Assembly (NCBI GenBank): GCA_035946335.1
Contig: DASYZL010000004.1
Span: 23,896 to 87,895, forward strand
DNA length: 64,000 bases
Direction: 5' to 3'
Source: Patescibacteria group bacterium
Lineage (GTDB): Bacteria; Patescibacteriota; Microgenomatia; Levybacterales; UBA12049
Shown here: positions 7,497-53,671 of the stretch, one piece after another
How positions within the stretch are numbered: position 1 is the first letter of the stretch
Layout: every line of letters starts with the position of its first letter
Program-made: the position numbers and the translations under genes
Notes under the pieces: generated by a model
The model's input: the letters and a program-made list of their open reading frames with translations, nothing else
Databases searched by the model: none
Told to the model about the DNA's origin: nothing

Positions 7497-7541
7497 TACA
7501 GTTTTAGCGTACCAACGGGACCCTTCTGTGTCAATATAACT

Positions 7542-8069: not shown

Positions 8070-8070
8070 A

Positions 8071-9562: not shown

Positions 9563-9585
9563 ATATCTATATAATAAAGTATATA

Positions 9586-10104: not shown

Positions 10105-10113
10105 ATACAGTTA

Positions 10114-13414: not shown

Positions 13415-13951
13415 TTACTCTGAGCACCAGTAGCAGGTTGTACCACCAGGATTTGTTGCAGGACAATTTGCAGCTGCACCAGTCAATGTCCCGTCTTTAT
13501 TATATTTTGCATTTGGATCATTTTGTCCTGACTTTGATTGAGGAAGGAAACATGCTGTAAGCGAGTTTGTGGTACCACTGACATAAATGCTGGTTAACAA
13601 CCCTGTTGCCGTCGTGAAACCAGCCTTAATTTCTCCATCATTTAATAAATCAGTCAAACAGGTAATCATTTGAGCAGAATTTAAATTAGCCGTTACTGGC
13701 GCAGTAAGTCCCGCTCCACCACAAGCAGTATCAACGCTCCACATCATTGCATTATGTGTGGTATAGTAACGGGTTCCAGCATTAACAAACTCAACGGCAG
13801 TATTTTTAACATTTGCATCTTGCGCTTTTTTCAATTGTTGAAACGGATCAATCGTTGCTATTAATGCGGTTGCCAAAATACCCAGAATACCAATAACGAC
13901 AAGTAGCTCAATAAGCGTAAACCCTTTTTCTTTTTTCACATCACAATGCAT
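13415..13951 (-). CDS. Type IV pilin paralogue
   Basis: MHCDVKKEKG|FTLIELLVVIGILGILATALIA; ATG confirmed at 13951 (longer in-frame alternatives exist up to 14044); Cys pairs in the C-terminal domain. Confidence 0.8.
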   Translation of the reverse strand: MHCDVKKEKGFTLIELLVVIGILGILATALIATIDPFQQLKKAQDANVKNTAVEFVNAGTRYYTTHNAMMWSVDTACGGAGLTAPVTANLNSAQMITCLTDLLNDGEIKAGFTTATGLLTSIYVSGTTNSLTACFLPQSKSGQNDPNAKYNKDGTLTGAAANCPATNPGGTTCYWCSE

Positions 13952-14046
13952 CTTTTTTAATAATAAAAACCGGAAGTTTTTTATTCCTTTCATTACATTA
14001 TTAGGATGGCATAGGTGACAAAAATTTGTCAAGTAGCAAAACAAAA

Positions 14047-14460
14047 TTATTGCGGGTTAACAAAGAGAATGCCAACTGGTTTTCCGGAGAAACGAATGAT
14101 AAAGGACCCAATATGATTCGCAGTAAAGGAAAATGAGCCCTCTTTATTTTTTTCAAGAGAAAAAACAGGAGAATATTTATCAATGGTTAATTGTCCGGAT
14201 GTATCCGAGACAACACGGAGAAGTACCGCGTTATTTTGCTTCACCTGAAAATTAGCTGCATCAAAAAAGTTCATATCCTGCCGGATGTTCAGTTTAAAAG
14301 TTTGCTCATTACCTGCACTGAGTACTGTTTGCTGCGACAAATGAGGCGGACCGCCTGAAGTAGTACTGTGTTGATCTTGTAGTGTGCGCTCGATGATAAG
14401 CGCTGCAATAACAAGAAAAAGTAACAGGGCAACAATAATAAGTTTTTGCATCCCTTTCAT
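14047..14460 (-). CDS. Small membrane-anchored protein of unknown function within the pilus operon
   Basis: One N-terminal TM helix (LIIVALLLFLVIAALII) followed by a Ser/Thr- and beta-rich soluble domain; no recognisable family. Confidence 0.5.
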   Translation of the reverse strand: MKGMQKLIIVALLLFLVIAALIIERTLQDQHSTTSGGPPHLSQQTVLSAGNEQTFKLNIRQDMNFFDAANFQVKQNNAVLLRVVSDTSGQLTIDKYSPVFSLEKNKEGSFSFTANHIGSFIIRFSGKPVGILFVNPQ

Positions 14461-14479
14461 AGCTCGCTGATAGTATAAT

Positions 14480-15685
14480 CTATTGAATTGATGAAGTTAA
14501 ATTGTAAATTGGTGTGATAATAGAAATGATAAGGAAAGCAACTGCAATACCAAGTATTATCATAATAAACGGTTCCATCGCTGTTGTGAGAGTTTTAACT
14601 GTCCCTTCTACCTCCCGTTCAAAATATTCAGAAACTTTTAGAAGCGATTCATCAAGATTACCAGTCTGTTCACCTATTTTCACCATTTGAACAATCATAG
14701 GAGGAAAAATAGGGTAGGCGCTGATCGCATCTCCAATTGTCACTCCTTTCTCAACGCGCTTTGCAATATCGATAATTGCAGTTTTGTAAATTCTGTTGCC
14801 AGCAACTTCTGCAGACTCGTTGAGTGATTCAACAACAAGTGTCCCCGCTCCGATAAGTAGTCCGAAAGTTCTGGAAAATTCAGTAAGGATTCTTTTCTTA
14901 ATAAGATTACCAAATACCGGAATTTTTAAAATGAGGCTATCGTGGATAAGTTCACCAGAGTCTGTTTTTTTCCATCTTTTGTATAATACAAAAAGGACAA
15001 CACCCAACCCAATTAAAAAAGGCCAAAAGATTATGACGATATTCGATAGACCAACAACAATTTGAGTTGGTAAAGGCAGTGGAATATTCAAATTACTATA
15101 TAAAACAGTGAGTTGCGGAATAACAAATATCATCATTACTCCCATTACCACAACCATTAGGATCACAATAATGACTGGGTAGGTGAGTGCACCACGAATC
15201 GTAGAACGAAGTTTTTGTTCTTTTTCCAAATTATCTGCAAGTCGTAAGAGTACTTTGTCCAGAAAACCTGATGACTCCGCAGCTTTAATAAGGGAAATAT
15301 ATACGTGGGAAAAAAGTTGCGGATATTTCTGAATTGCAGTTGAGAGCGCTTTCCCTTCTTGTACATCGGAAATAATACTGCTGACTACTTCTTTCATGCC
15401 CTCATTTTGTATCTGGTCTTTTAAAATGTCTAATGCCTGCGTCAACGTTAAGCCTGCTGTTAGCATGGAAGAAAGTTGACGCGTAAACAATACAAGGTCA
15501 TTTGTTGTCAGACGATTAAAATATGAAACAAACGGAATTGTTTCTTTTGCTTTTTCTTGTTCAAGACGGATAGGAAGTAACTCTTTTGCCCGTAAAAAAT
15601 ACGCTGCCTCCTGAATATCTTTTGCATCCATAACACCCTGTACAATTCTTCCTGTTGGAGTAGTGGCTTTGTATGTCAGTTTCAT
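14480..15685 (-). CDS. pilC: Type IV pilus platform protein PilC (GspF family)
   Basis: Two GspF repeats and three TM segments (LTAGLTL...QALDIL..., FSRTFGLLIGAG). Confidence 0.9.
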   Translation of the reverse strand: MKLTYKATTPTGRIVQGVMDAKDIQEAAYFLRAKELLPIRLEQEKAKETIPFVSYFNRLTTNDLVLFTRQLSSMLTAGLTLTQALDILKDQIQNEGMKEVVSSIISDVQEGKALSTAIQKYPQLFSHVYISLIKAAESSGFLDKVLLRLADNLEKEQKLRSTIRGALTYPVIIVILMVVVMGVMMIFVIPQLTVLYSNLNIPLPLPTQIVVGLSNIVIIFWPFLIGLGVVLFVLYKRWKKTDSGELIHDSLILKIPVFGNLIKKRILTEFSRTFGLLIGAGTLVVESLNESAEVAGNRIYKTAIIDIAKRVEKGVTIGDAISAYPIFPPMIVQMVKIGEQTGNLDESLLKVSEYFEREVEGTVKTLTTAMEPFIMIILGIAVAFLIISIITPIYNLTSSIQ

Positions 15686-15689
15686 TTCC

Positions 15690-16772
15690 TTATCCTACCA
15701 GTTGCAGTAATTCATTTGGGTGCAGCGAATAATTCTTTGCAATATCAAGGCTGATGATTCCAGAAAGGATCAGTTGTGCAAGTGAACTATCCAATGTCTC
15801 CATGCCAACATCCTGACTCGTTTGAATAATAGAATCAATTAGGTGGGTTTTTCCATCTCTTATGTTACTTGCAACCGCAGGTGTTCCTATCATCACCTCA
15901 ACTGCCGGAATCCGTCCGCCAGATAACATCGGCAAGAGACGTTGTGATATTATACCCTGCAATACAAATGCAAGCTGGGTCCGTACTTGTGATTGCTGAC
16001 TCGTTGGAAATGAATCGATGATTCTGTCTACCGACTGTGCGGCTGAATTCGTGTGCAAGGTCGAAAATACTAAATGCCCGGTTTCTGCGATTGTCATCGC
16101 TGCGCTCATTGTATCCGGATCGCGCATTTCTCCAACTAAAACAACATCAGGATCTTCCCGTAAGGCAGATTTTAACGCAGCAGCCCATGAAAGTGTATCT
16201 GTTTTTAGTTCTCTCTGGGAAATCATACTTTTGCCAACCGGATAAACGTATTCTATCGGATCTTCAACTGTAAGGATGTGAGCCGCACGGGTCATATTAA
16301 TTTCATTGATAATTGCTGCTAATGTTGTTGATTTTCCGTGCCCTGTGGGACCTGTAATTAAAACCAGCCCTTGACGGAGTTTGGTAAAACTATGGCAAAT
16401 GGTAGGAATGTGCAATTCTTCGATAGTGCGGATACCTCTTTGAAGGAACCTGAGTGCCGCACAGAGTTGATTACGTTGAAAATAGGCATTTACGCGAAAT
16501 CTGCCAATGTCACCATAAATTCCCTTACCATAGGGAATAGAGAAGTCGAGTTCTTTTCCTGAAATTAGTAGATTTTTTTGCTCCGGTGTCAGAAGAGAGA
16601 AAAGCATACTTTGAACGGCCTCAGGGGAAAGTATGGAATAAGAAGATAAATAAGTAAGCTCACCGTCTATGCGAAGAACTGGCGGAATACCTGGCATCAG
16701 ATGTAAATCAGATGCGTTATTTTTAACAGTAAGCGCTAATAATTCTTGTAAATCCATGCTATTCTTGTGCAA
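15690..16772 (-). CDS. pilT: Twitching-motility retraction ATPase PilT
   Basis: ASDLHLMPGIPPVLRIDGEL, Walker A GPTGHGKSTT, Asp box and His box (TGHLVFSTLHTN). Confidence 0.9.
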   Translation of the reverse strand: MHKNSMDLQELLALTVKNNASDLHLMPGIPPVLRIDGELTYLSSYSILSPEAVQSMLFSLLTPEQKNLLISGKELDFSIPYGKGIYGDIGRFRVNAYFQRNQLCAALRFLQRGIRTIEELHIPTICHSFTKLRQGLVLITGPTGHGKSTTLAAIINEINMTRAAHILTVEDPIEYVYPVGKSMISQRELKTDTLSWAAALKSALREDPDVVLVGEMRDPDTMSAAMTIAETGHLVFSTLHTNSAAQSVDRIIDSFPTSQQSQVRTQLAFVLQGIISQRLLPMLSGGRIPAVEVMIGTPAVASNIRDGKTHLIDSIIQTSQDVGMETLDSSLAQLILSGIISLDIAKNYSLHPNELLQLVG

Positions 16773-18561
16773 CGCGTAATACTTCTTCGATTGTAGTCAC
16801 ACCCTGTAATACCTTCATATACCCATCCTGCTTCATAGTTATCATGCCCTCTACTACCGCCTCTTTTTCAACAGTTTCGCTATCAGGGTGTTCCAGAATA
16901 AGCCGTGACACCTTCTCTGAAACAGGTAATACTTCAAAGATACCAATTCGTCCTATATAACCGGAATCCCCACATGCTTCGCATCCTTTTCCTTTATACA
17001 ATTGTATGTTTGCCTGTGAGGTCGGAAAAAGTTGTCCAAGAACTGTTTTCAGCTCCTGGACAACCTGTGCTGGAGGCGTATATGCCTCTTTACAATGCAG
17101 GCAAATTCTGCGAACAATTCTTTGCCCTAAAATCGCTGTCATTGTTGAGGCAAGCAAAAAATTCTCCGCTCCCAAATCCAACAATCTCGGGAGGGCTCCA
17201 GCGGCAGAAGAAGTATGTAATGTCGAAAAGACCAAATGTCCGGTGAGCGATGCCTGAATAGCAAGATCTGTTGTCTCGCGATCACGAATTTCTCCGACAA
17301 GAATAATGTTTGGGTCCTGTCGTAAAAACGCACGCAATCCTGATGCAAAGGTGAGTCCAACTGCCGGATTTATCTGTACCTGGTTTACACCGACAATTTC
17401 ATATTCAACCGGATCTTCAAGTGAAAGAATATTGACACTTGGTGTATTGAGCCGGGATAGAACAGAGTAGAGTGTTGTTGTTTTTCCTGAACCTGTCGGC
17501 CCACAAACAACAATAATGCCATGCGGCCGCAACATTGCTGTTTCAAGATTTTTTAATGCAGTTCCGCCCAAACCCAATTCCTGAAACGTGGGAATGCCGC
17601 CGGATTTTCGCAAAAGCCGCATGACTATCTTTTCTCCATGAACAGTAGGTAATACAGAAATACGTAAATCCACCTCCTGATCGTCTGCTTTAAAGTTAAA
17701 TCGTCCATCCTGAGGAGTTCTATGCTCATCAATTTTCATTTCGGACAAAACTTTGATTCGCGAAATAACTGCTCCCTGTACAGTTTTCGGTAAACTTAAT
17801 CTATCATATAAAATACCATCAATACGGTAGCGAACACGTACCCGGTCCTCCAGCGGTTCAATGTGCACATCAGACGCACGACTAGTTACTGCATACTCAA
17901 GAATCGTTGCGACGATTTTAGCAATTGGCGCTTCTTTTATAATTTCACCGATTTTTTTACTGTCAATGGTTTTCGTCTTGTTTTCAACTTCTTCTGTTTC
18001 TTTTACCGCCCTGCCGACTTCACCGACAAGTTCCTGCCGGTATTGCGTGTTAATTGCATGTTCAACATCTGTGGATGAAGCTGCAAATGCTTTTATCGTA
18101 AGGCCTGTTTTTTGCCTGACAAATTGTAGCGCATCCAGGTCAACGGGATTACTCATGGCAATAAAGAGCGTTTTTGTTTTATCGTCGTACAAAAAGGGGA
18201 CGAGATGAAATCTGTCTACAACGGCTCGTGGTATAAAACTTAAAGCCTGTGGTGAAAACGAGGTATTTGCAAGTGAGACAAACGGAATACCGAGTATTTT
18301 TGCTTTCACTTGTGCGAGCTGCTCTTCTGTCACGATTCCGGATTGCGATAGGAGAAGATCAATAGGTATTCCATTTGTTGCACTTTTCGCCCGTATATCG
18401 TCATACTGTGCTTTAGTAATATATTTCTCGTTCAGTAGTTCTGTGAGCAACGAATCCTGGCTGTTCGAAAAAGAAGACAGAACACCGTTTGGCGCTACCG
18501 GAACAAGCTGTTTTGTCATATTTGGTACAGAAAACGTATTCCCTGATAATTGTGTGGGCAT
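16759..18561 (-). CDS. pilB: Type IV pilus assembly ATPase PilB (GspE family)
   Basis: N-terminal GspE-N domains, Walker A GPTGSGKTTT, tetracysteine CLHCK...CEACG, GRIGIFEVL. Confidence 0.9.
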   Translation of the reverse strand: MPTQLSGNTFSVPNMTKQLVPVAPNGVLSSFSNSQDSLLTELLNEKYITKAQYDDIRAKSATNGIPIDLLLSQSGIVTEEQLAQVKAKILGIPFVSLANTSFSPQALSFIPRAVVDRFHLVPFLYDDKTKTLFIAMSNPVDLDALQFVRQKTGLTIKAFAASSTDVEHAINTQYRQELVGEVGRAVKETEEVENKTKTIDSKKIGEIIKEAPIAKIVATILEYAVTSRASDVHIEPLEDRVRVRYRIDGILYDRLSLPKTVQGAVISRIKVLSEMKIDEHRTPQDGRFNFKADDQEVDLRISVLPTVHGEKIVMRLLRKSGGIPTFQELGLGGTALKNLETAMLRPHGIIVVCGPTGSGKTTTLYSVLSRLNTPSVNILSLEDPVEYEIVGVNQVQINPAVGLTFASGLRAFLRQDPNIILVGEIRDRETTDLAIQASLTGHLVFSTLHTSSAAGALPRLLDLGAENFLLASTMTAILGQRIVRRICLHCKEAYTPPAQVVQELKTVLGQLFPTSQANIQLYKGKGCEACGDSGYIGRIGIFEVLPVSEKVSRLILEHPDSETVEKEAVVEGMITMKQDGYMKVLQGVTTIEEVLRVAQE

Positions 18562-21176: not shown

Positions 21177-23120
<1,944 letters not shown>

Positions 23121-23121
23121 T

Positions 23122-23598
23122 ATGGGCGTACGAAAGCTTATTGAGGACTATTTGCAGGAAGCGATGCTTATGCAGATTGCAACGGCAAAAAACAATCAGC
23201 CGTGGGTTTGCACTGTGCATTTTGCCTCAGACAATGCTCTACATTTATTTTGGATTTCACAGCCGGATCGGAGACATTCGAAGGAAATAGAAGAAAATGC
23301 CCTGGTTGCAGGAACAATTGTCATTCCACACACAAAAGATCAGAAAGCACGGGGTTTACAGTTTCAGGGAATTGCCAAAAAGCTCACTGACAAGAAAGAA
23401 TTCTCCCATGCAATTGAAGTTCTTGCAAAGCGCATGGAATACCAAAGTGAAAAAATACACAATCTCTTGGAAGGAAAGGATAACCATGTACCGTACCAGA
23501 TTATTCCCGAGTATTTTGTGCTTTTTGATGTAGTTAACTTTCCGCAAAATCCGCAGCAAACATATGTAGTAAAAAAAGGAAGCGAGGTGAAACAATAA
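23122..23598 (+). CDS. Pyridoxamine 5'-phosphate oxidase-like FMN-binding split-barrel protein
   Basis: LMQIATAKNNQPWVCTVHFASDNALHLFWIS resembles the PNPOx-like/general-stress-protein-26 family; start set to the ATG at 23122 just after the gyrB TAA. Confidence 0.55.
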   Translation: MGVRKLIEDYLQEAMLMQIATAKNNQPWVCTVHFASDNALHLFWISQPDRRHSKEIEENALVAGTIVIPHTKDQKARGLQFQGIAKKLTDKKEFSHAIEVLAKRMEYQSEKIHNLLEGKDNHVPYQIIPEYFVLFDVVNFPQNPQQTYVVKKGSEVKQ

Positions 23599-24116
23599 TG
23601 GATTACAAGAAACTCTCAACAGGAAAAGATCCGGAAAATGGACTCGTAAACGTCCTGATTGAAATTCCAAAAGATAATAATATCAAGTATGAATTAGATA
23701 AAGACTCAGGCCTCATACTAGTGGATAGATTTTTATATACGGCAATGAGTTATCCGTTCAATTATGGATTTGTACCAAACACATTAGCACAGGATGGCGA
23801 TCCGATTGATGTCATTGTTCTCTCAGAACACGCAGTTGTTCCTGGAAGTGTTATACCTTCTGTTGTTATCGGTATGCTTGAAATGGAAGATGAGGAGGGA
23901 ATTGATACAAAAATCCTTGCTGTACCAACAGCAAAAGTTGATCCGCTATTTGGTATCTATAAAAATATCGATGATGTTCCAGAAGCGATTAAAAAGAAAA
24001 TCAAACATTTTTTCGAAAATTATAAGTCACTAGAGCCGGGAAAGTGGGTAAAACTGAAAGAATGGAAAGATAAATCGGATGCAATTGCAGCTGTGAAAGA
24101 ATCACTGAAGGCATAA
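23598..24116 (+). CDS. ppa: Inorganic pyrophosphatase
   Basis: EIPKDNNIKYELDKDSG...YPFNYGFVPNTLAQDGDPIDV family I PPase signature. Confidence 0.9.
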   Translation: MDYKKLSTGKDPENGLVNVLIEIPKDNNIKYELDKDSGLILVDRFLYTAMSYPFNYGFVPNTLAQDGDPIDVIVLSEHAVVPGSVIPSVVIGMLEMEDEEGIDTKILAVPTAKVDPLFGIYKNIDDVPEAIKKKIKHFFENYKSLEPGKWVKLKEWKDKSDAIAAVKESLKA

Positions 24117-24167
24117 AAAGAAGTGAGAGGGTAATAACCCATCTATCTTCTCACTTCTTTCTTTTTT
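24116..24167 (+). terminator. Rho-independent terminator-like hairpin immediately upstream of the gyrA start
   Basis: GAAGTGAGAGG...CTTCTCACTTC 10-11 bp inverted repeat followed by TTTCTTTTTT, ending at the gyrA ATG. Confidence 0.6.
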
Positions 24168-26720
24168 ATGGAAATAGGTAAATTACAAAAAACAGAATTG
24201 ACTCACGAAATGAAGCGCGCATATTTAGACTATGCGATGTCTGTTATTGTTGACCGGGCGCTTCCTGATGTGCGTGATGGATTGAAACCTGTACACCGCA
24301 GGATACTTTTTGCAATGCATGAATTGGGACTTGTGCACAATGCAAAATATGCAAAGTCTGCAAAAATTGTCGGAGAAGTAATGGGAAAATATCATCCCCA
24401 TGGTGATATGCCAATTTATGATGCACTGGTACGACTTGCACAGGATTTCTCCATGCGTTACCCGCTAATCGACGGACAAGGTAACTTTGGAAGCATTGAC
24501 GGAGATCCACCTGCGGCGATGCGTTACTCAGAAGCGAGAATGGCAGCTATCACATCAGAAATGCTCTATGATTTAGACAAAGAAACCGTTACAACGAAAC
24601 CAAATTTTGATGCAACACTGCAAGAACCACTCTATCTTCCTGCAAAACTGCCCAACCTTCTTTTAATGGGCGCAGAAGGTATTGCAGTTGGTATGGCAAC
24701 TAAAATTCCTCCGCACAATTTGACTGAAATTATTAATGCAATCATTGCGATGATTGAAAAAAGCAAAATAGAGAAGACTGTACCAGGGAATACGCATACA
24801 GAAAAATCTGCAATAAGAACAAATCCAATGAATAAGGTACAAAACGTAACCAACAGTAATAATCACACGATACATCTTTTGACTGATATCTCTATTGAAG
24901 AACTGCTTACGTATGTAAAAGGTCCTGACTTTCCGACAAAAGGAGCGATTTATGACATCAATGAAATTAAAAATCTCTATGCTACAGGCAAAGGGAAAAT
25001 AGTTATCCGGGGAAAAGCAGAAATTGAAGACATCGGACAGGGAAAATCGGCGATTATTATTACTGAACTTCCTTATCAGGTAAACAAAGCATTATTAGTC
25101 GCGCGTATTGCTGATCTTGTCAAAGAGAAAAAAGTGGAAGGTATTACGGATTTGCGCGACGAATCAGACAGACACGGCCTTCGCGTTGTTATTGAGTTGA
25201 AACGTGACGCTACACCAAAAAAAGTTCTCAATAATTTATATAAAAATACCTCTTTGCAAACAACCTTTCCTGGTAATATTGTTGCCTTAGTTGACGGCAC
25301 GCCACAAACCTTAACGCTAAAAGTTATTCTTGAAGAATATGTTAAGCATCGCTTTCTTGTTGTCACGAAGCGAAGTGAATTTGAATTAAGACAAGCGAAG
25401 GCGCGGCTACATATTTTAGAAGGACTGAAGATTGCAGTCGATCATATTGATGCAGTCATCGCAACTATCAGAGGCTCAAAAGACCAGGAAGAAGCAAAGA
25501 AAAATCTGATGGATAAGTTTACGCTGTCTGAAATCCAAGCAACAGCAATTCTTGATATGCAGTTGCGCCGCCTGGCAGCGCTAGAACGGCAGAAAATTGA
25601 AGACGAGCTCATGATGGTTAAAGAAACAATTGCCTACCTTGAGGATTTACTTGCACATCCGGACAAAGTATTGACGGTCATCAAAGAAGAACTGCAGAAA
25701 CTGAAAGAAAAATTTGGTGACGAACGAAGGACTCGTGTTTTCAAGGGAAAAGTCGGTGAATTTTCCGAAGAAGATTTGATTCCAAATGAACCAACTGTCA
25801 TCACAATCACAACAACAGGATACATCAAGCGTCAGAGCACAAACTCTTTTTCAACACAGAATCGCGGGGGTAAAGGAGTAAAAGGCATGACGACAAAAGA
25901 AGAAGATGAAATCATGAATATCCGCTATGCACAAACACATGATAATTTACTGTTCTTTACTAATAAAGGGAAGGTTTATCAACTGAAAGCCTACGAAATT
26001 AACGAAAGCAGCCGGGTTAGCAAAGGAACAGCAATTGTTAATTTACTTAACATAGAAGCGGGAGAACAAATTGAATCTTTTATTAACTATTCAGGAAAAA
26101 TGTCTGGTTTTGTTTTTCTGACAACACGTAACGGTACAGTGAAGAAATCAAAGATCTCTGAATTTGAAAATATTAGGCGTAGCGGTATTGTCGCAATCAA
26201 GCTTGATAAGGGTGATGAATTGGTATGGAGTAATTTCACAACAGGTAATGATGATATTCTGCTGGTAACAAAAGAAGGAAAAGCAATCCGATTCTCCGAA
26301 TCTGAAGTCCGTCCGATGGGACGCGCAACACAAGGTGTACGAGGAATCAAAATAAACACAACGGATGAAGTTATCGGCATGGATATCATTGAAAAAAATG
26401 ACAAAACAGCAGAACTCCTGGCAATCATGGAAAACGGTTTGGGGAAGAAGACATTTGCAACAGAGTTTCGCGGACAAAGCAGGGGAGGCATGGGTGTAAA
26501 AGTTGCCAATGTGACAGAAAAGACAGGAAAAGTTGCAAGTGCGCAGATTATTCCGCCAAATACGAAATCTGTTATTATGACATCCAAAAAGGGACAGGTA
26601 GTACAGATTGATGTAACGGCAATTCCGCATCTCTCTCGTGCAACGCAGGGGGTCATTCTCATGCGATTCTCTCATTCTGGAGACCACATTGCCTCTACCA
26701 CCTGTGTTGCGGAAAAGTAA
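24168..26720 (+). CDS. gyrA: DNA gyrase subunit A
   Basis: [24 protein letters not shown] and the active-site Tyr region, with a C-terminal beta-pinwheel; carries an approximately 40-aa insertion before GPDFPT. Confidence 0.95.
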
Positions 26721-26746: not shown

Positions 26747-27601
26747 ATGATTATAGATGGACGGACAATTGCCAATAGCATTCTTGAAAACCTCTCGCAA
26801 CGTATCCGTAAATTGCAAAAAAATTATGGCATAGAACCACACCTTGTTGTTATCAGGGTAGGGGAGGATCCGGCAATTACTTCATATATTGCACAAAAAG
26901 AAAAAATGGCAAAAAAAATCGGTGCAATAGTAAGTGTATACAATTTCCCTTCAAATGTTACCGAAGATGAACTAAAGGCATGCCTTGATTTCTTGCAAAC
27001 GAAAACAAATATCCATGGCACCATTCTTCAATTACCGCTACCTCCGCATCTGGACGGGAAAAAATTGCTCCTGGAAATCAGGGCTGAAAAAGATGTTGAC
27101 GGATTCCGTCCGAATTCACAGTTTCCTGTTCCGATTGCACAGGCAGTTATCAAATGCCTGAAAATTCCGTATGTGAAAGTGGCTGAAAAAACAGAACAAA
27201 TATTTGATGAATGGCTCAAGAGCAAAACAGTTATTGTCATCGGGAAAGGCAAAACAGGCGGACAGCCGGTTATTGATGCATTGCAAAAGAAAGGCATACA
27301 TCCCATGATTATTGACACTCGAACAGAACACCCTGAGGTTATCCTTAAACAGGCAGATATTATCATTTCTGCTGTTGGGAAGGAACATGTCATTACCAAA
27401 AATATTCTGAAAAAAGATGTTATTCTTATCGGCATTGGTATACACATGACGGATGAGGGAAAATTTGCAGGAGATTATAACGAGACGGAGATTAAAGACA
27501 TTGCTTCGTGGTATACGCCAGTTCCTGGTGGTGTTGGACCGGTCAATGTTGCCTGTCTGATGGAGAATCTTGTTATCGCGACAGAAAATGCAGTAACATA
27601 A
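26747..27601 (+). CDS. folD: Bifunctional 5,10-methylene-THF dehydrogenase/cyclohydrolase FolD
   Basis: MIIDGRTIAN...LPLPPHLD...VPGGVGPV FolD signatures. Confidence 0.9.
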   Translation: MIIDGRTIANSILENLSQRIRKLQKNYGIEPHLVVIRVGEDPAITSYIAQKEKMAKKIGAIVSVYNFPSNVTEDELKACLDFLQTKTNIHGTILQLPLPPHLDGKKLLLEIRAEKDVDGFRPNSQFPVPIAQAVIKCLKIPYVKVAEKTEQIFDEWLKSKTVIVIGKGKTGGQPVIDALQKKGIHPMIIDTRTEHPEVILKQADIIISAVGKEHVITKNILKKDVILIGIGIHMTDEGKFAGDYNETEIKDIASWYTPVPGGVGPVNVACLMENLVIATENAVT

Positions 27602-27718: not shown

Positions 27719-29383
27719 GTGCCCGATAGCAAACATAATACAAAATATATATTTGTTTCTGGTGGACTTATTTCAGGTATTGGCAAAGGTACGACCGCTG
27801 CCTCAATTGCTCTTCTTTTTAAATCTACAGGATACAAAGTATCATTAATAAAATTTGAAAACTATCTTAACCTTGATGCAGGAACGATAAATCCTATAGA
27901 ACATGGAGATCCTTTTTTATGTGAGGATGGAACAGAGGCAGATATGGATATTGGCAGCTATGAAAAATTCCTCCATGAGGATATGGGAAAGGGGAACTTC
28001 GTTACCATGGGACGGATTTATCAAACAGTTATCGAGCGGGAACGGAGGTTTGAATATAATGGAGAGGATGTTGAGGCAATACCGCATATAACTGATGAGA
28101 TCATAAAGCGCATCAAGGGATTAGCGAGAGAAAAAAAGGCTGATATTGTCATTATTGAACTAGGAGGAACCGCAGGAGAGTATCAGAATATTTTTTACTA
28201 TGAAGCATCCCGTATTATGACGTTACAACATCCGCAGGATGTTATCCACATTCACGTCAGCTACGTACCGACACCACGTCATCTTGGAGAACCGAAAACA
28301 AAACCAACGCAACTATCTGTTCGGACGCTTAATTCAATGGGAATTCAGCCGGACTTTATTGTCGCAAGAAGCGAGAAATTTTTAGACCAGAGACGGCGCG
28401 ACAGGTTCGCATTGTTTTGCAATATGCATGAAGGAGATATTATTTCCAACCCTGACATGGACTCTGCATACGAAATTCCTCTTACACTCCATGAGCAACT
28501 GCTTGACGAAAAGATATTGAAAAAACTTCAGCTCCCCGTTAGGAAACCTCACCTCAAAGAATGGCAACAGCTTATTGATACGATTCTTGCGAAAAAAGAA
28601 AAAACAATTGAAATAGCAATTGTTGGTAAATACTTCGGGACAGGGGAATACCAGTTACGTGATGCATACGCAGCACTGTTCGATGCAATCGACCATGCTT
28701 CCTGGAAAACTGGTGTTGCGGTAAAAACGCGTTGGGTCAGTGCGGAAAAAGTGGAGAAAGAAGGAGCGGAAAAAATCATTGGCAACCCTGACGGCATTAT
28801 TGTACCAATCGGGTGGGGAGAACGCGGCGCAAAAGGAATGATACTGGCAGCAACGTATGCACGGGAACGAAAAATTCCTTATCTAGGGCTTTGCTACGGT
28901 ATGCAACTTGCAGTCGTTGCGTTTGCCCAAAGTGTTTTAGATTGGAGTGATGCAAATACGTCGGAAAATAATCCCAAAACAAAGCATGATATTATTCATT
29001 TAATCCCTTCACAAAAAACACTCATGGAACGACGTGCGTATGGCGGCACCATGCGATTGGGCAGTTGGGAAGCGATCGTAAAAAAGGGAACTCAAACATT
29101 TTCCTTTTATGAGAAATTCGGCGGATCAATCAATGTCAAAACAGGATTAACCAGTGAACGTCATCGCCACCGTTATGAAGTGAATGAGCGGTTTGTAAAA
29201 GATCTGGAAAAGGCAGGACTCATTATTGCTGCGCGATCGAAAATTGAAAATCTTGTTGAGATTATTGAATTACCAAAAACCATGCATCCGTTTTATTTAG
29301 GCACACAGGGTCACCCGGAATATAAAAGCAGACCGCTTGCTCCGCATCCACTCTTTGTTGCCTTCCTGAAAGCAATGATGTAA
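27719..29383 (+). CDS. pyrG: CTP synthase (GTG start)
   Basis: YIFVSGGLISGIGKGTTAASIALLF, glutamine amidotransferase Cys (GLCYGMQ), GTQGHPE. Confidence 0.95.
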   Translation: MPDSKHNTKYIFVSGGLISGIGKGTTAASIALLFKSTGYKVSLIKFENYLNLDAGTINPIEHGDPFLCEDGTEADMDIGSYEKFLHEDMGKGNFVTMGRIYQTVIERERRFEYNGEDVEAIPHITDEIIKRIKGLAREKKADIVIIELGGTAGEYQNIFYYEASRIMTLQHPQDVIHIHVSYVPTPRHLGEPKTKPTQLSVRTLNSMGIQPDFIVARSEKFLDQRRRDRFALFCNMHEGDIISNPDMDSAYEIPLTLHEQLLDEKILKKLQLPVRKPHLKEWQQLIDTILAKKEKTIEIAIVGKYFGTGEYQLRDAYAALFDAIDHASWKTGVAVKTRWVSAEKVEKEGAEKIIGNPDGIIVPIGWGERGAKGMILAATYARERKIPYLGLCYGMQLAVVAFAQSVLDWSDANTSENNPKTKHDIIHLIPSQKTLMERRAYGGTMRLGSWEAIVKKGTQTFSFYEKFGGSINVKTGLTSERHRHRYEVNERFVKDLEKAGLIIAARSKIENLVEIIELPKTMHPFYLGTQGHPEYKSRPLAPHPLFVAFLKAMM

Positions 29384-29425: not shown

Positions 29426-31054
29426 ATGGATACGAATAAAGATTACTATAAGATAAGTTCATACGAAGCGAGAAAAGGGCAGGTGAAAAAAATTGTCCTC
29501 CTTTACTCCGGTAGTCTTTATACAACCGCACTGATCCCCTGGCTGAAAGAAACGTATAAGGCTGAAGTTGTCACGGTTACTGTTGATATAGGCCAAAAGG
29601 TGAATTTCGCAGAAATAAAAGATGACGCGTTGCGAGTTGGCGCATCAAAAGCCATTTTTATTGACGCAAAACAGGAGTTTGCAGAAAAGTACATTGCAAA
29701 AGCAATTAGAGCAAACACAGCATATAGAGAAGGATATCATTTATCTGCTCCCTTAAGCCGTCCCCTTCTAGCCAAACATGTAGTCAAAATAGCCGAAGAG
29801 GAGGGCGCTTCAGCAATTGCACATGGCGCATCAGGGCAAAGCAATGACCAGGTACGTTATGAAAGCCTAATCATCACACTGAATCAGGACATGAAAATTA
29901 TTGCGCCGTTACGCGGAAACGAGTTTTCATTGAAAGATTCTAAAGAATATGCAAAAAAATACAAAATCGCACAGGAGTATCAGGATCCGTACTATGCTAC
30001 AGATAAAACGCTATGGGGCGCAAGCATACTTGGCGGGACTGTGGAAAATACGTTCAAGCTTATCCATGTTGAACATTTGCTCAGTATGACAACCTTACCT
30101 GAAAAAGCTCCTGATACTCCTGAAAGTGTTACAGTAGAGTTCTTCCATGGCCTTCCAATAAAGGTGAATGGTAAACAGATGCCGCTTACTCCGTTAATTC
30201 AGGAATTAAACATCATTGCCGGAAGAAACGGTGTTGGTATTTCCTACCACATTACAGACATTATTATCGGCGTAAAACTGCGAAGTATTGATGAAGAACC
30301 AGCCGCAACGTTACTTATCAATGCACACAAAGAACTGGAAAAGTACGTATGCACGCGGGAGGAAAATGATATGAAACCGCTTATTGATACAAAGTGGATG
30401 TCGCTTTGCCACGATGGCTTGTGGTATGAACCACTTATTGCAGACATTGATGCGTTCATTACAACGGTTAATAAAAAGGTAAACGGTACCGTAAGTATTC
30501 AGTTGTATAAAGGGAATATGGATATTACGAATGTAAGAGCTCCCCAAACAATCTTTGAGAGAAAACGTGCAATGCATCTTGCAGATTATAGCATCATAAA
30601 CCCTCACGCGTTTCCCGGCTATATCGAAATTCACTCACTTCCCATGCGCCTTGCATATAGAAAAGAAAGTAATATTTTACTAACCATTGGGAAACGGAAT
30701 AATAAATTAAAACTTATCCAATCGCTTCGGGAAATCGATAGAGACCGGGTAACACTGTACGCAACATACAAAACGCATAAATTTCTTGCGAGGAACGGTA
30801 TATCATCAATACTTGTTAACAAAATGATGCATAAACATTTAGAGCCGAATTTGCGTACTTTATTACTTGAGAACCGTTTTGATGTCATTATCCGTATTCC
30901 TTCCGCAAAAAAATTGACACAAGGAGAGAAAGAAGCAGCGCAATTTATTCAAGATAAAGCAAAAGAGAATAATGTTTTGCTTATCGCTTCAGTAGAAGAA
31001 GCTCACAAATTGCTAGAAAGCTATCATAAAGCTCTAAAAAAAATTAACGTTTAG
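29426..31054 (+). CDS. Argininosuccinate synthetase-like N-type ATP pyrophosphatase with degenerate PP-loop, fused to a C-terminal MGS-like (CarB allosteric-type) domain
   Basis: Full-length ArgG homology (AHGASGQSNDQVRYES, GRNGVGISYHITDIIIGVKLRS, LWYEPLIADIDAFI), but the PP-loop reads SGSLYTT instead of SGGLDTS. The extra approximately 130-aa C-terminus (ATYKTHKFLARNGISSILVNKMMHKH) resembles the CarB MGS-like domain. Confidence 0.8.
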   Translation: MDTNKDYYKISSYEARKGQVKKIVLLYSGSLYTTALIPWLKETYKAEVVTVTVDIGQKVNFAEIKDDALRVGASKAIFIDAKQEFAEKYIAKAIRANTAYREGYHLSAPLSRPLLAKHVVKIAEEEGASAIAHGASGQSNDQVRYESLIITLNQDMKIIAPLRGNEFSLKDSKEYAKKYKIAQEYQDPYYATDKTLWGASILGGTVENTFKLIHVEHLLSMTTLPEKAPDTPESVTVEFFHGLPIKVNGKQMPLTPLIQELNIIAGRNGVGISYHITDIIIGVKLRSIDEEPAATLLINAHKELEKYVCTREENDMKPLIDTKWMSLCHDGLWYEPLIADIDAFITTVNKKVNGTVSIQLYKGNMDITNVRAPQTIFERKRAMHLADYSIINPHAFPGYIEIHSLPMRLAYRKESNILLTIGKRNNKLKLIQSLREIDRDRVTLYATYKTHKFLARNGISSILVNKMMHKHLEPNLRTLLLENRFDVIIRIPSAKKLTQGEKEAAQFIQDKAKENNVLLIASVEEAHKLLESYHKALKKINV

Positions 31055-31120
31055 CCTCTTGCAATAAGCAGATTGCGTGCTATAATTGCAACAATATTTG
31101 TAATCTTACAACAAGTAACT

Positions 31121-31156
31121 ACCCTCGCTTGCAGTGAGGGTTTTTTTCTTTTTTTA
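31121..31156 (+). terminator. Rho-independent terminator after the argG-like gene
   Basis: ACCCTC-gcttgcagt-GAGGGT hairpin followed by a 16-nt T-rich run ending 2 nt before the next ATG. Confidence 0.6.
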
Positions 31157-31157
31157 T

Positions 31158-32726
31158 ATGATTGACGTAGAAGAAATACTTTATAGGCATGATGGTTCAG
31201 AAATTGCAAGAAAAGGAGATTTAGTTCTTAAAGCGTTCAAGCACCCGGAATTATTCCTTCCTGCGGACGAATCATTAGCTGAAGTAAACATTCCTTGGAT
31301 TATTTCAGAGGAACGCCATAATTTAATGGTTCTTTCTAAAAATCCAAATCCCCCAAGCATTTACTATGCTGCTAATACCGGTGCACTAGACTTTACGCCT
31401 GCGCTTGTTGATCCTCGTATCGATCCGCAAGAAGCAGAAGAAATGAGGGTGAATAATTATGTATATGCATTACGACCATTGGGACTACTTACTCCAAACG
31501 ATTTCCTTGTTTTTACTGAAGGCGATGAGGAATGGATGATAGATGCTTATGCAAGAGTAATGAAACCATCGATGGAATCGTTTGGTCTCAGTTTGCCACC
31601 AGAAGACCATCTTATACCAACTTCTAATGTAGAAAAATGGATACTGGAGCAGAACGGAAGTTTGGCTATATGTCCGAGTGTCCCACTTCCTTCTCATGTT
31701 GCAAGTTACGGAGAAAGTCAAGCTGATGCAGTAGGAAAATATCTGCGTACATTAGCATATAATATTGCAGGCACAAAAGAGAGAGCCCAGGAGTTCTTTC
31801 AAAGCATACTGACAGACCGATTTCCAGGAGGAATTCCAACACCTAAAACACAATATGTATATTATGATCCCCAAATACATAGTCCTGAGATGATTGCAAA
31901 TATAGTTCGGGATACTGAATTGGGAAAATATAAGTATCTTTTTATCAAATCTACCGATGGAAGATCAGGGGGAACTGGCAGCGTTGGCTCTCGGATTGAA
32001 GAGCTTGGAAAACACATCGCGTTATATCCAAATCCACAGAAGTTGCAATTTCAAAAGGGAATAAAGATTGCAAGCGGTCAAAACATATGCGTTTCAGCAA
32101 ATATTACACCTAATCAGGTATTTATCAATTCGCATACCGTTCAACGGATAAAACAGACCCCTGAAGGATATGCAAAACATGATGGAAATATATGGAGAAA
32201 GGGTTGGAGACATGGTGTTGGAATGCGCTCGGATATTTTAGAAACAGTATCTGCTGCACTGGATGCTTTACGGGTGGATGGTAGAATAGTCGGACCGGTA
32301 AATATTGATATGGCAGGCAGTAGATCGAAGCCGAGATCAGAAAGGAGAGGTTCAGTCATTATTCCTATTTGCGCATTTGTCATTGAAGTCAATGCGCGAG
32401 ATGCAGGCTCAAAGTTAGTCATAGAACCATTCCAAGATAAAAAAATAGACGACGAACCGATTGAAACAATTATGTCAAGAGCATCTGTAGAAATTCCAAA
32501 TGACAGTTTTCTCTCCCCAGATGGTTCACGTATTTTAGAATATACTCAGACAGATGCTCTTAAGGGAGAGAAAGAAGGTATGCAAATAGGCATTGTTGGA
32601 CCTAGCAGGAAGTATCCGGGATGTCGACCAAGAGCGGGCTTTGTTTTCAGCGGAACAGAAAATGTTAGCTTGGAAGATTTAGAAAATCTTGAGAAAAAAG
32701 TACTCAGTAAAATTGAGTCATGGTAA
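31158..32726 (+). CDS. Hypothetical protein with putative C-terminal ATP-grasp domain
   Basis: KYLFIKSTDGRSGGTGSVGSRIEEL (Lys plus Gly-rich loop) and GPVNIDMAG...AFVIEVNARDAGS (R/D...E-x-N) resemble ATP-grasp signatures; the roughly 270-aa N-terminal half is unassigned. Start set after the terminator; the ORF-track start at 31134 lies in the T-run. Confidence 0.5.
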   Translation: MIDVEEILYRHDGSEIARKGDLVLKAFKHPELFLPADESLAEVNIPWIISEERHNLMVLSKNPNPPSIYYAANTGALDFTPALVDPRIDPQEAEEMRVNNYVYALRPLGLLTPNDFLVFTEGDEEWMIDAYARVMKPSMESFGLSLPPEDHLIPTSNVEKWILEQNGSLAICPSVPLPSHVASYGESQADAVGKYLRTLAYNIAGTKERAQEFFQSILTDRFPGGIPTPKTQYVYYDPQIHSPEMIANIVRDTELGKYKYLFIKSTDGRSGGTGSVGSRIEELGKHIALYPNPQKLQFQKGIKIASGQNICVSANITPNQVFINSHTVQRIKQTPEGYAKHDGNIWRKGWRHGVGMRSDILETVSAALDALRVDGRIVGPVNIDMAGSRSKPRSERRGSVIIPICAFVIEVNARDAGSKLVIEPFQDKKIDDEPIETIMSRASVEIPNDSFLSPDGSRILEYTQTDALKGEKEGMQIGIVGPSRKYPGCRPRAGFVFSGTENVSLEDLENLEKKVLSKIESW

Positions 32727-33083: not shown

Positions 33084-34733
33084 ATGGCAAGCGTAGAGAG
33101 AGCATCCACTGGACAAGGAAGAGAAGCATCAAATTTATCTGCAGTTGACTATGCCCGATTAGCGGCAGACGCTAAGCTGCGAATTGCAGATGCAGGAAAG
33201 ACGAAATCATCGCAACCAGAACTTACTCCTGAACAGCAAAATCATCTCCTGGTAAATCGCCCTGACTTTACGTTTGTTGATGGAAAACCACAATACACCA
33301 TCGATCAACCATTCTTTTGGTATTATCATAGTCCTGATCTCACCGTATATAAACCTTCTCCGCTTATGCATGCCGAGGTAAAAGGACACAATCTTCCTTT
33401 GGCGTTTGAGTATCTGACAAAAGTCACTGATGATGCAACACAACGAGATGTATATTATCGTGTTATCACCAAAGGCGTCCCCCTTGAGATTCAGGACTCC
33501 TTAGAGCAGGAAAATAACTCAACCTACTATGCATCAGAGGAGCTAAAAAAAGCCATGGATAAACTCCGAAAACAAAAATCACAACGGCGTTCTGCTACTC
33601 AGATATCAACTAATTGGTTTATGGAGAGAGAAGAGCATTATTACTTTGACAAGACAGGAAGATTAGAATGGCAAAATTCTGTTTTTAGCTCTGAAAATAA
33701 ACAAATAGTTCAACTTGTACATGTAGAACGGCTTGATCCAACTCGCACTATTGTTCCTGAAGATTTGCCAGACGAAGCGGCCATCCGGAGAACAATGCTG
33801 AAACTTAACCAACGGCTTAATCTTAACACAAATGAAAACGTTATTCAAAAAATGGCAATTCCTGAGACCGATCCGTTACCAAAGAATTTATCAGAGCAGA
33901 AACAGAAGGAAGAATTAGAAAGAAGGAAGCCGTTTGGTTTTCGGGGATGGAATGTATTTGAACAAAGGGAAATTCAAACGCCTTTTGCAACAAATAAGTT
34001 ATATACACTACGGCTGATGACTGAGCGTAATGGCACAAGGTTATTTATTAAGTTGCTTAGCGCTGAACCGCTTCGTGAAAAACTTCGTGAACTTGCTAAA
34101 AAAGATCAAGAGAGACCTGAAGGTTCTCGCGAATTTGATTTTATTCCAGTATCGGAAAATAAAAAGCTTGTTTCTCTTGAGAGGGTTTGTTCTTGTATGG
34201 GAGCGAGAAGAGGGTGCGATTGTTATGAACAAATGCCGGAACGAGTCGCAGCAACATTACGGGAGAATGGCGTTATGGTACTTCTGCAACTTGATCAAAG
34301 CATGGCTTATGGAGCACCTATAAATGCCTTAGAATACAAACAAGCAGCAATATTTACAAATACATTAGATACTGGCAAAGCACCTGGTAAGGCTGATAAA
34401 GTTTTTCATACTACAATGCCAATCAGAAAAGGGTGGTTTGGGGAAAATACTCCTAAAGATTTAACAGCCTATAAGGATATTGGCGAACTCATCATAAAAA
34501 TCTTCGGTCCACACCGAGAAAAAGAAGAATTTTATGAAATGATAACCGATAATGCAGCAAAACTCGGGTCAATCGAATCATGGGGATTAAAAGTAAAGCG
34601 GAGAAAAAGCGAGAAAGCAGATGCTGAAGTGAGAAAAGCAAAAGCAGAACACTTAGATTATCTTCCGCCAGATACGTCTCGTTCAAGACGAACTGGGACT
34701 ACGACACCATCAACATTTGCTTCAGCTGCATAA
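33084..34733 (+). CDS. Large hypothetical protein (549 aa) with CSC-x6-CDC cysteine cluster
   Basis: Strong RBS AAGGAGAG; no TM or signal peptide; VCSCMGARRGCDCYEQ possible metal-binding motif; Lys/Glu-rich C-terminus; slightly elevated GC. Confidence 0.6.
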   Translation: MASVERASTGQGREASNLSAVDYARLAADAKLRIADAGKTKSSQPELTPEQQNHLLVNRPDFTFVDGKPQYTIDQPFFWYYHSPDLTVYKPSPLMHAEVKGHNLPLAFEYLTKVTDDATQRDVYYRVITKGVPLEIQDSLEQENNSTYYASEELKKAMDKLRKQKSQRRSATQISTNWFMEREEHYYFDKTGRLEWQNSVFSSENKQIVQLVHVERLDPTRTIVPEDLPDEAAIRRTMLKLNQRLNLNTNENVIQKMAIPETDPLPKNLSEQKQKEELERRKPFGFRGWNVFEQREIQTPFATNKLYTLRLMTERNGTRLFIKLLSAEPLREKLRELAKKDQERPEGSREFDFIPVSENKKLVSLERVCSCMGARRGCDCYEQMPERVAATLRENGVMVLLQLDQSMAYGAPINALEYKQAAIFTNTLDTGKAPGKADKVFHTTMPIRKGWFGENTPKDLTAYKDIGELIIKIFGPHREKEEFYEMITDNAAKLGSIESWGLKVKRRKSEKADAEVRKAKAEHLDYLPPDTSRSRRTGTTTPSTFASAA

Positions 34734-53670: not shown

Positions 53671-53671
53671 A

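Follow-up and report, generated by a model that had tools for sequence, protein, structure and literature searches.

The question raised by this locus is whether a gene annotated as an argininosuccinate synthase can still encode one when the catalytic loops of its product have been rewritten, and what the product may be doing if it does not. The gene is located on a stretch of 64,000 nucleotides from a Patescibacteria group bacterium (assembly GCA_035946335.1, contig DASYZL010000004.1, positions 23,896 to 87,895 of the forward strand), the whole of which is referred to here as the window, and it encodes an ArgG body fused to a C-terminal allosteric domain of the type found in CarB, the large subunit of carbamoyl-phosphate synthetase (CPS). 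In silico analysis of the gene, its homologues and their loci leads us to favour, with moderate confidence, the reading that its product is a catalytically disabled and selectively retained derivative of an ArgG-CarB-domain fusion specific to Patescibacteria, and that it probably binds a ligand or has a regulatory part in pyrimidine nucleotide metabolism. The gene and its parts are as follows.

29426..31054, + strand: ArgG-MGS fusion open reading frame (ORF), 542 aa, complete; a member of the degenerate subclade A of the Patescibacteria ArgG-MGS family
29489..29968, + strand: ArgG N-terminal nucleotide-binding (HUP) domain, residues 22-181 (Pfam PF00764, E=6e-52; Foldseek match to 1kh1, E=5e-31)
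29507..29527, + strand: degenerate PP-loop S28-G-S30-L-Y32-T-T34, canonically SGGLDTS; S30 and Y32 are the equivalents of human G14 and D16
29822..29863, + strand: second ATP/aspartate loop H133-G-A-S136-G-Q138-S139-N-D-Q-V-R-Y-E146, canonically HGxTGKGNDQVRFE
29993..30652, + strand: ArgG C-terminal synthetase domain, residues 190-409 (Pfam PF20979, Arginosuc_syn_C, E=4e-51)
30671..31048, + strand: CarB-type allosteric (MGS-like) domain, residues ~416-541 (Pfam, profile and AlphaFold2 (AF2)/Foldseek evidence)

The homology to ArgG proposed by a sequence-only reading of this DNA was borne out over residues 22-409 by the two Pfam matches given above, and the protein scores 384 bits against the NCBIfam argG equivalog PRK00509, the cutoff of which is 334. 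The closest solved relative is the ArgG of Thermus thermophilus (phmmer E=2e-81), while the NCBI entry of the identical protein is titled 'MAG TPA: argininosuccinate synthase [Patescibacteria group bacterium]'. For the whole protein, AF2 gave a model with a mean predicted local distance difference test score (pLDDT) of 77, the nucleotide-binding core and the C-terminal domain being confident and confidence being low at the substrate loops (residues 185-212 and 277-288) and the inter-domain linker (residues 375-413). Foldseek ranked ArgG structures first for this model, then the nitrile synthetase ArtA, and then CPS1 and CarB by way of the C-terminal domain. The known enzymes, ArgG and ASS1 (EC 6.3.4.5, N-type ATP pyrophosphatases of ~390 residues; T. 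thermophilus 1J1Z/1KH1, human 2NZ2), have the same two-domain fold as the window model (Foldseek E=5e-31, target-normalised template modelling (TM) score ~0.8). The window protein differs from them by SGSLYTT in place of SGGLDTS, by an extra C-terminal domain of ~130 aa, by the lack of an arginine-pathway context in 64 kb, and by replacement of the equivalents of human K121, G122, E191, R272 and Y282 throughout subclade A and of R157, S180 and E270 in the window copy.

The altered residues are spread over both catalytic loops and the synthetase domain. The PP-loop reads L-L-Y-S-G-S-L-Y-T-T (residues 25-34), YSGGLDTS being present in every solved ArgG of the alignments, which confirms the G to S and D to Y substitutions noted from the sequence. 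The second nucleotide/aspartate loop reads HGASGQSNDQVRYE, with the motif AHGASGQSNDQVRYE located at residues 132-146, and in this loop T is changed to S, K to Q and G to S, while N140, D141 and R144 are unchanged. Further ligand sites are altered in the C-terminal synthetase domain, namely A191 (human S180), T195 (N184), L202 (E191), T277 (E270), I279 (R272) and D289 (Y282). The citrulline ligands Y104, N140, R144 and S200 are unchanged, and by alignment the equivalents of human S12, T17, R95, G117, N123, D124, R127, D182 and S189 are also kept. The two PP-loop substitutions to which the sequence-only reading confined the degeneration are thus real, but the damage is much wider, extending to K to Q and G to S in the second loop, the E191/R272 pair, Y282 to D, three effector-pocket sites and three losses private to the window protein.

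Comparison with homologues established that the fusion is not peculiar to the window gene. The best 120 matches (P0001-P0120) from a collection of 5.8 billion proteins all have the same three-domain ArgG-MGS architecture (120/120), the taxa named among them being Microgenomates, Roizmanbacteria, Levyibacteria, Magasanikbacteria and Saccharimonadales, and a scan of one genome per species found a relative of the fusion protein encoded in 368 genomes. ArgG-MGS is the standard form in Patescibacteria, automatically annotated as plain 'argininosuccinate synthase'. No description of an ArgG-MGS fusion was found in the literature searched, and the papers on Saccharibacteria among the results list argG/argH without further comment, so that the parent family is apparently previously undescribed; the earlier statement that the architecture is undescribed holds in this sense and fails as a distinguishing mark of the window gene. 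What does distinguish it is the PP-loop, which has the form SGS-x-[YF]-T-x in P0001-P0014, i.e. the window protein and its nearest relatives at 52-55% identity, and SGGLDTS in P0015-P0120 apart from three exceptions. Neighbour joining, with T. thermophilus ArgG as the root, placed these 14 proteins, subclade A, in a monophyletic group nested beside Microgenomates-type canonical proteins; the SGS-x-[YF]-T loop is accordingly normal within a 14-member subclade which is itself uncharacterised. The other 106 proteins, clade B, have the canonical ligand residue in at least 97% of cases (allowing K/R at 118 and Y/F at 270, T. thermophilus numbering), and mapping of their ligands to T. thermophilus ArgG indicated that the ATP, citrulline and aspartate sites are kept.

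The substitutions of subclade A, given here and below in T. thermophilus numbering unless marked as human or window residues, are fixed: G10S, D12Y/F, K118Q/T/S, G119S, E184I/L, R260M/I/L/T and Y270D/E are each present in 14/14 proteins, and T116S is common to the subclade. In an unbiased column scan 211 columns were at least 90% conserved in clade B and 174 of these were kept in subclade A; the 36 columns that discriminate between A and B include both phosphate loops, the E184/R260 pair and three effector-pocket sites. The window protein is the most divergent member of the subclade, with 13 changes of its own at sites that are otherwise conserved throughout, as compared to 0-8 in its siblings, and among these are S173A, N177T and E258T at positions kept by the 13 siblings.

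The likely consequence of these substitutions can be gauged against a scan of human ASS1 (2026), in which 2,193 missense variants were assayed by yeast complementation and a relative growth value was obtained for each (PMC13289927). The mapping of human to window residues was checked by alignment, and the human sequence used agreed at 37/37 residues named in that study. The values below, all from the same source, are listed by human residue, window residue and extent of the change.

G14, window S30, subclade A: G14S -0.0008; ClinVar pathogenic/likely pathogenic
D16, window Y32, subclade A: A/E/G/V/N at most 0.012, 5/5 amorphic
T119, window S136, subclade A: T119S 0.26
K121, window Q138, subclade A: K121Q 0.040; 6/6 amorphic
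G122, window S139, subclade A: 4/4 amorphic
G156, window S168, subclade A: 5/6 amorphic
R157, window L169, window protein only: 6/6 amorphic
S180, window A191, window protein only: 5/5 amorphic
E191, window L202, subclade A: Q/V/A/G/K at most 0.04; E191D alone tolerated
E270, window T277, window protein only: A/V/K/G/Q at most 0.067
R272, window I279, subclade A: R272L 0.17
Y282, window D289, subclade A: Y282D 0.60

Taking the human enzyme as a proxy, the window protein most likely makes no argininosuccinate. A protein that is still a working argininosuccinate synthetase, with the PP-loop compensated by co-varying changes and the CarB-type domain acting in nucleotide or ornithine feedback, would agree with the argG equivalog score above the cutoff, with the retention of the S12-, T17-, R95-, G117-, N123-, D124-, R127- and D182-equivalents, with the purifying selection described below and with the epistasis evident at K121, but we consider it quite unlikely. 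At least five fixed substitutions are at human-null positions, the identical G14S among them, the S180, E270 and R157 equivalents are gone from the window copy, and the characterised or solved ArgGs in the search are all SGGLDTS. In addition, at matched genome divergence no canonical pair has changed as fast as this protein, and argH, argF, arginine deiminase (ADI) or another citrulline source were found nowhere in the 64 kb; Pfam scans of the 62 window ORFs of at least 164 aa returned no Lyase_1 (argH), ADI or ornithine transcarbamylase (OTC) domains, which together with tblastn upholds the earlier observation that the window has no argH, argF or carAB.

Whether the gene is simply decaying was addressed from its coding sequence and rate of change. 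The subclade A coding sequences are intact in 7/7 loci, and pairwise Nei-Gojobori comparison gave a proportion of synonymous differences (pS) of 0.70-0.83, which is saturated, and a proportion of nonsynonymous differences (pN) of 0.16-0.31; owing to this saturation, selection was judged by the contrast of pN with pS and by relative rates calibrated on GyrA and FolD. Among the 14 proteins 128/533 columns are invariant, and the subclade A fusion is under purifying selection. At a GyrA identity of 77-90% the 45 pairs of canonical fusions compared have identities of 72-94% (mean 82%), whereas subclade A proteins are 52-63% identical, below the canonical minimum, a result with which the FolD clock agrees and which corresponds to evolution ~2-2.5 times faster than that of canonical members. 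Between the window and its relatives, similarly, GyrA, GyrB, PyrG and XerC are 77-82% identical as compared to 52-54.5% for the fusion, designated ArgG*-MGS in this subclade. Constraint on subclade A is relaxed, though maintained.

These data bear directly on the alternative that the gene is a functionless relic, an unprocessed pseudogene observed before its first stop codons. Such a relic would be expected to lose catalytic residues and operon partners and to evolve faster than canonical members, as is the case here, and the window copy is the most derived of the subclade at universally conserved sites. We nonetheless regard this alternative as very improbable, as full-length ORFs are intact in all 14 protein clusters and in the 7 sequenced loci despite the saturated pS and the low pN, as nearly a quarter of the columns are invariant, as the gene closely follows pyrG in an operonic arrangement and precedes a terminator-like site, and as CPR (candidate phyla radiation) genomes are small and streamlined. 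It is the combination of lost catalytic residues with purifying selection that leads to the pseudoenzyme reading.

The nature of the C-terminal domain offers an indication as to what has been retained. Pfam MGS (PF02142) was matched at residues 430-517 with 28.5 bits (gathering score 24.1; E=1.7e-6), and a weak NCBIfam match aligned the C-terminus with positions 932-1048 of the 1058 of CarB. As a single sequence the C-terminal 139 aa gave no meaningful match to PDB sequences, but a profile of the domain built from 20 fusion-family members matched 2yvq, the allosteric domain of human CPS1 (E=2.3e-15), as well as CPS1 in full length and residues 941-1044 of E. coli CarB (E=2e-8), the PurH MGS-like domain being ranked lower. 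The AF2 model of the domain alone (pLDDT 91.4) is a five-stranded parallel sheet with strands alternating with helices, and its top Foldseek matches are CPS allosteric domains (TM 0.66-0.73; 2yvq at TM 0.72, root-mean-square deviation 2.4 A), the CarB-IMP complex 1ce8 among them, with methylglyoxal synthases and then PurH below. Both the profile and the structure searches therefore favour CPS allosteric domains, in agreement with the CarB-type MGS-like extension that was suggested from the sequence, and the register then proposed (ATYKTHKFL...VNK against ATHGTAIVL...VNK) was correct.

In the known system, the allosteric domain of the CPS large subunit (E. coli CarB 937-1073; human CPS1 L4, 2YVQ), which is the best profile and fold match, is carried on an ATP-grasp synthetase, while in the window protein it is carried on an ArgG body. 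E. coli CarB K954, T974, T977 and K993 align to window K427, T447, T450 and K466, and these four columns are invariant across the fusion-family alignments. We take K954 and T974 to make phosphate contacts in the structure of the IMP complex, and N1015 presumably contacts the ribose. The equivalent of N1015 is Asn in 97/106 canonical fusions and R490 in the window protein, subclade A having R in 11, S in 2 and H in 1, and two further pocket sites are changed in most of subclade A, S468H and R509 to L/V/M, the window protein having M468 and I509. Experiments on E. coli CarB showed that UMP binding and inhibition by UMP depend critically on T977 and K993 (PMC6245113). From the conserved sites a phosphate-bearing effector may reasonably be supposed for the C-terminal domain of the fusions.

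The genomic setting allowed the history of the gene to be traced. The features of the window that matter here are the following.

21180-26720: gyrB, ppa and gyrA, used together with folD as markers of positional orthology
26747..27601, + strand: folD, conserved upstream of the fusion gene in degenerate and canonical loci alike
27719..29383, + strand: pyrG (CTP synthase), ending 42 nt before the fusion gene
31121..31150, + strand: terminator-like hairpin with a T-run, a 9-bp stem with 5 G-C pairs, 67 nt past the stop codon; consensus match only

Seven mutually syntenic subclade A loci were obtained (the window, L001, L008 and L088-L091), in which the order is gyrB, ppa, gyrA, folD, pyrG, ArgG*-MGS, variable genes, RmlC-like, SIMPL, xerC, transaldolase and trehalase. 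The canonical fusion genes of related genomes are at the identical position downstream of gyrA and folD, and the window gene is therefore a positional orthologue that was changed in place rather than an added paralogue, as it had been called before the locus was compared, though the genome may carry a second copy elsewhere. In 6/7 of the subclade A loci pyrG is upstream of the fusion gene, and in the window it is the only one of the pyrimidine-operon genes to remain beside it; tblastn of the 64-kb window recovered no carA, carB, pyrB/argF-family, pyrC/D/E/F or partner-family homologues. In L088 the fusion gene is still directly preceded by pyrG, pyrB, carA and carB, and pyrF and pyrE persist in L001; these remnants indicate that the ancestral setting of subclade A was also a pyrimidine operon, eroded to differing degrees. 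Genes for AH6886 (a PRK06886-family amidohydrolase) and for DDAH-like and DHODH-like proteins, the partners described below, are present in 0/7 subclade A loci, AH6886 being found in 0/7 as compared to 70/85 canonical loci (Fisher p=2e-5).

pyrG and the ArgG* gene are probably co-transcribed, and transcription of the pair likely ends at the hairpin at 31121-31150. The GTG at which the ORF at 31134-32726 was called to begin falls within this hairpin, and the true start of that ORF is probably a downstream ATG ('MIDVEEILY', near 31158). Upstream of the hairpin, within 31059-31150, the best promoter-like site of the scanned region consists of TTGCAA and an extended-TG TATAAT with 16 nt between them. 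The ORF at 31134-32726 (530 aa) and that at 33084-34733 (549 aa) were matched by neither Pfam nor NCBIfam, and the two are lineage-specific insertions between ArgG*-MGS and dcd. Further from the fusion gene, a large type IV pilus/type II secretion system (T2SS)-like cluster of the kind typical of CPR episymbionts is encoded at 5656-18561 on the minus strand; it comprises pilM, at least five genes with prepilin N-methylation motifs, a prepilin peptidase, a TMEM260-like glycosyltransferase, a T2SSF protein and two T2SSE ATPases. Two tandem TldD/PmbA-family genes are located at 52066-55378, and tRNA-Leu(CAA) (55343-55428, + strand) overlaps the 5' end of one of them (53672-55378, minus strand) by 36 nt, from which it follows that the TTG start of the latter was probably called too far upstream.

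The setting from which subclade A departed was determined from ORFs called and clustered in 88 loci, with annotation of the recurrent clusters and with partner counts over 85 canonical loci. The canonical fusion genes are located in pyrimidine operons, not arginine operons, and three gene orders recur: ArgG-MGS, AH6886, DHODH-like, pyrE, pyrF; ArgG-MGS, DDAH-like, AH6886, DHODH-like and onward; and CBS, ArgG-MGS, AH6886, carA, carB, pyrB, pyrC, DHODH-like. As in the window, folD and gyrA are frequently upstream. The canonical fusions (P0015; P0073 from Magasanikbacteria; P0077 from Saccharimonadales) have the same architecture, position and effector residues as the window protein at 42-51% identity, and they keep the ArgG ligands and the AH6886 neighbour, with or without DDAH-like, DHODH-like, pyrE and pyrF, whereas the window protein has lost both. 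Further recurrent neighbours are an aspartase-like lyase, purA, udk and a protein above the cutoff for the putative citrullinase CtlX (PMC9007349), and no argH was seen in ~1.5 Mb of flanks.

AH6886 is usually directly downstream of the canonical fusion gene (e.g. L004:8984-9958, L006:12447-13436, L002:11634-12623). It is a protein of ~328 aa that passes the cutoff of the PRK06886 'hypothetical protein' equivalog (352-439 bits against 340) and resembles cytosine deaminases distantly; its best 120 homologues, at 70-87% identity, are near-identical CPR proteins only, none of them characterised. An assignment of AH6886 as pyrC was considered and rejected, as no dihydroorotase model matched, as the PRK06886 cutoff was passed, and as true pyrC and pyrB are present separately in some of the operons. 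In L016, L032 and L034 (e.g. L034:2253-3617) AH6886 is replaced by an 8-oxoguanine-deaminase-like amidohydrolase of 454 aa, which suggests that the required partner is an enzyme of the guanidine/amidine deaminase type; an amidohydrolase of either kind is present in 73/85 canonical loci and 0/7 subclade A loci. The DDAH/arginine-dihydrolase-like gene is directly downstream in 21/22 of its loci by gene clustering and was detected by tblastn in 26/85 canonical loci.

Several features of the canonical operons were observed in passing. In L014, L028, L052, L068 and L069 the CtlX-type gene is upstream on the opposite strand and the DDAH-like gene downstream of ArgG-MGS (e.g. L028:8911-9846, minus strand; L014:11632-12444), an arginine/citrulline-processing trio inside pyrimidine operons with no argH in the flanks. 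The 'pyrD' of these operons is divergent, with 50-70 bits against DHODH/PreA models for which the cutoffs are 200-450 (L004:11628-12731, L052:13829-14893 and 44 other loci). A second CarB-domain fusion, an AsnRS-core/AsnA-like protein of ~472 aa with the domain at its C-terminus (L046:12489-13907; also L029, L045 and L059), is encoded between the amidohydrolase and DHODH-like genes, and to judge from these sequences the CarB-type domain seems to serve in CPR pyrimidine operons as a regulatory module that can be attached to different proteins. Among L009-L082 many CPR-type loci come from metagenome-assembled genome (MAG) records titled 'uncultured Gammaproteobacteria bacterium', and others from records of Sulfotelmatobacter, Acidiferrales and Limisphaerales; these records are probably mislabelled or mis-binned.

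On a conservative reading, the canonical fusion would be a true argininosuccinate synthetase, and through its CarB-type domain pyrimidine nucleotides would steer aspartate between amino-acid and pyrimidine synthesis. A bolder and unlikely proposal is that an undescribed pyrimidine route starts at the canonical fusion, and that the window protein is its dead descendant, a nucleotide- or amino-acid-sensing regulator acting with CTP synthase. In such a route arginine or citrulline, the latter from the adjacent DDAH-like enzyme, would be combined with aspartate and ATP to give argininosuccinate, the guanidino carbon of which would be hydrolysed by AH6886 or its 8-oxoguanine-deaminase-like substitute to yield ornithine and carbamoyl-aspartate or dihydroorotate; these products would feed the DHODH-like enzyme, pyrE and pyrF, bypassing carbamoyl phosphate, aspartate transcarbamylase (ATCase) and classical dihydroorotase (DHOase). 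The canonical fusion would then be a nucleotide-regulated first step and not an arginine-biosynthesis enzyme. The literature searched contained nothing of relevance on a link between arginine and pyrimidine metabolism in CPR bacteria or on a route independent of carbamoyl phosphate.

The three exceptions to the canonical PP-loop in clade B also have degenerate catalytic sites. P0119 has SGDSRSS together with Y84N, G119D, R124L, S173V, E184K, R260Q and Y270L, P0099 has D12N, S173A, S182V and Y270C, and P0120 has D12N. The locus of P0119 (encoded at L092:4332-5927) is syntenic with subclade A, adjoins pyrB, pyrC, a true argF and an arginase fragment, and is without AH6886, while the genes of P0099 and P0120 (L093 and L094) are found between prs and DDAH-like/pyrB. 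The changes of P0119 affect the same catalytic positions with other residues, the pattern expected if catalysis is dispensable and the scaffold is kept; P0119 represents either a separate loss or an early branch of that of subclade A.

The most probable of the alternatives is that the protein is a neofunctionalised enzyme, in which the remodelled pocket (S30, Y32, Q138, S139, I/L202, D289) binds another nucleotide or an already activated substrate and supports a novel reaction, a ligation or a hydrolysis, connected with pyrimidine or arginine metabolism. Modified PP-loops are not without precedent, as in phosphoadenosine phosphosulfate (PAPS) reductases the loop binds PAPS instead of ATP, and the ArgG fold has been recruited elsewhere, e.g. 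in the nitrile synthetase ArtA (9leh/9lei), which is among both the sequence and the fold matches. The replacement residues are invariant or nearly so across 14 sequences only 52-76% mutually identical, purifying selection is clear, the D124-, N123-, R127- and R95-equivalents are kept, and the effector pocket is altered in concert (N490R, S468H, R509L). Nevertheless, we consider this possibility tentative and less probable than a pseudoenzyme. No new conserved neighbour specific to the degenerate subclade is present among the seven subclade A loci, as might have accompanied such a change, constraint is relaxed ~2-2.5-fold and not shifted, P0119 altered the same positions to quite different residues, and the window copy has lost three more pocket residues (S173A, N177T, E258T), which is unexpected if the protein is catalytic.

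Several observations weigh against the pseudoenzyme reading that we prefer and set limits to it. S30, Y32 and S139 are invariant across 14 diverged sequences, as would be expected of a newly acquired binding or catalytic function more than of simple loss. The human ASS1 scan is a proxy across ~35-40% identity, D16Y and G122S are absent from the variants assayed, and K121R is null in human ASS, yet Arg is found there in 21/106 canonical CPR fusions, which demonstrates that epistasis exists. The window protein still scores above the argG equivalog cutoff. The seven subclade A loci are one lineage, and the association with partner loss counts as one event, or two if P0119 is independent; the two ORFs downstream of the fusion gene in the window are without a homologue even in the six syntenic sister loci. 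The architecture, the conserved replacements, the orthology by position, the loss of partners, the faster rate and the purifying selection are observed, whereas the loss of activity is inferred by way of the human proxy and any regulatory role is likewise an inference.

Of the options offered by the sequence-only reading, an altered substrate or regulatory mode or a pseudo-enzyme, it is the last that is favoured by the human ASS1 scan, the loss of partner genes and the acceleration in rate, and the pseudoenzyme reading may be set out as a sequence of events. The ancestral CPR fusion would have combined an ArgG body retaining its catalytic residues with a nucleotide-binding CPS allosteric domain, encoded in a pyrimidine operon with AH6886 beside it. 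In the window lineage the partner genes would have been lost and the machinery converting ATP to AMP and PPi dismantled, through G to S and D to Y in the PP-loop, K to Q and G to S in the second phosphate loop and replacement of the E191/R272-equivalent pair by hydrophobic residues, with further loss of the R157, S180 and E270 equivalents in the window copy. What would remain conserved is the fold, part of the amino-acid pocket (human Y87, N123, D124, R127 and S189) and the phosphate-binding residues of the effector site. The present protein would thus be a non-catalytic, ligand-binding protein with a regulatory or scaffolding role, tied to pyrimidine nucleotide metabolism.

Other proteins of the ArgG fold have diverged from argininosuccinate synthesis, among them NF038212 ('argininosuccinate synthase-related protein'), against which the window protein scores 181 bits with a cutoff of 425, and ArtA (PDB 9LEH/9LEI; E=3e-27). 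Both are without an MGS-like domain, and the window protein, which scores far better on true argG models, is a member of neither.

If it is indeed inactive, the window protein would be a natural and selectively maintained ArgG-derived pseudoenzyme, and to our knowledge none has been described. Annotation pipelines label it, and probably the whole of its subclade, argininosuccinate synthase, and in metabolic reconstructions the genomes concerned are thereby credited with a citrulline-to-arginine step that they probably lack. The coincidence of fixed substitutions with null positions of the human citrullinemia type provides a natural test of which parts of the scaffold are kept for non-catalytic reasons. 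More consequential than the window protein itself is the parent family and its pairing with AH6886 in pyrimidine operons, which bears on the coupling of arginine, aspartate and pyrimidine metabolism in ultra-small symbionts.

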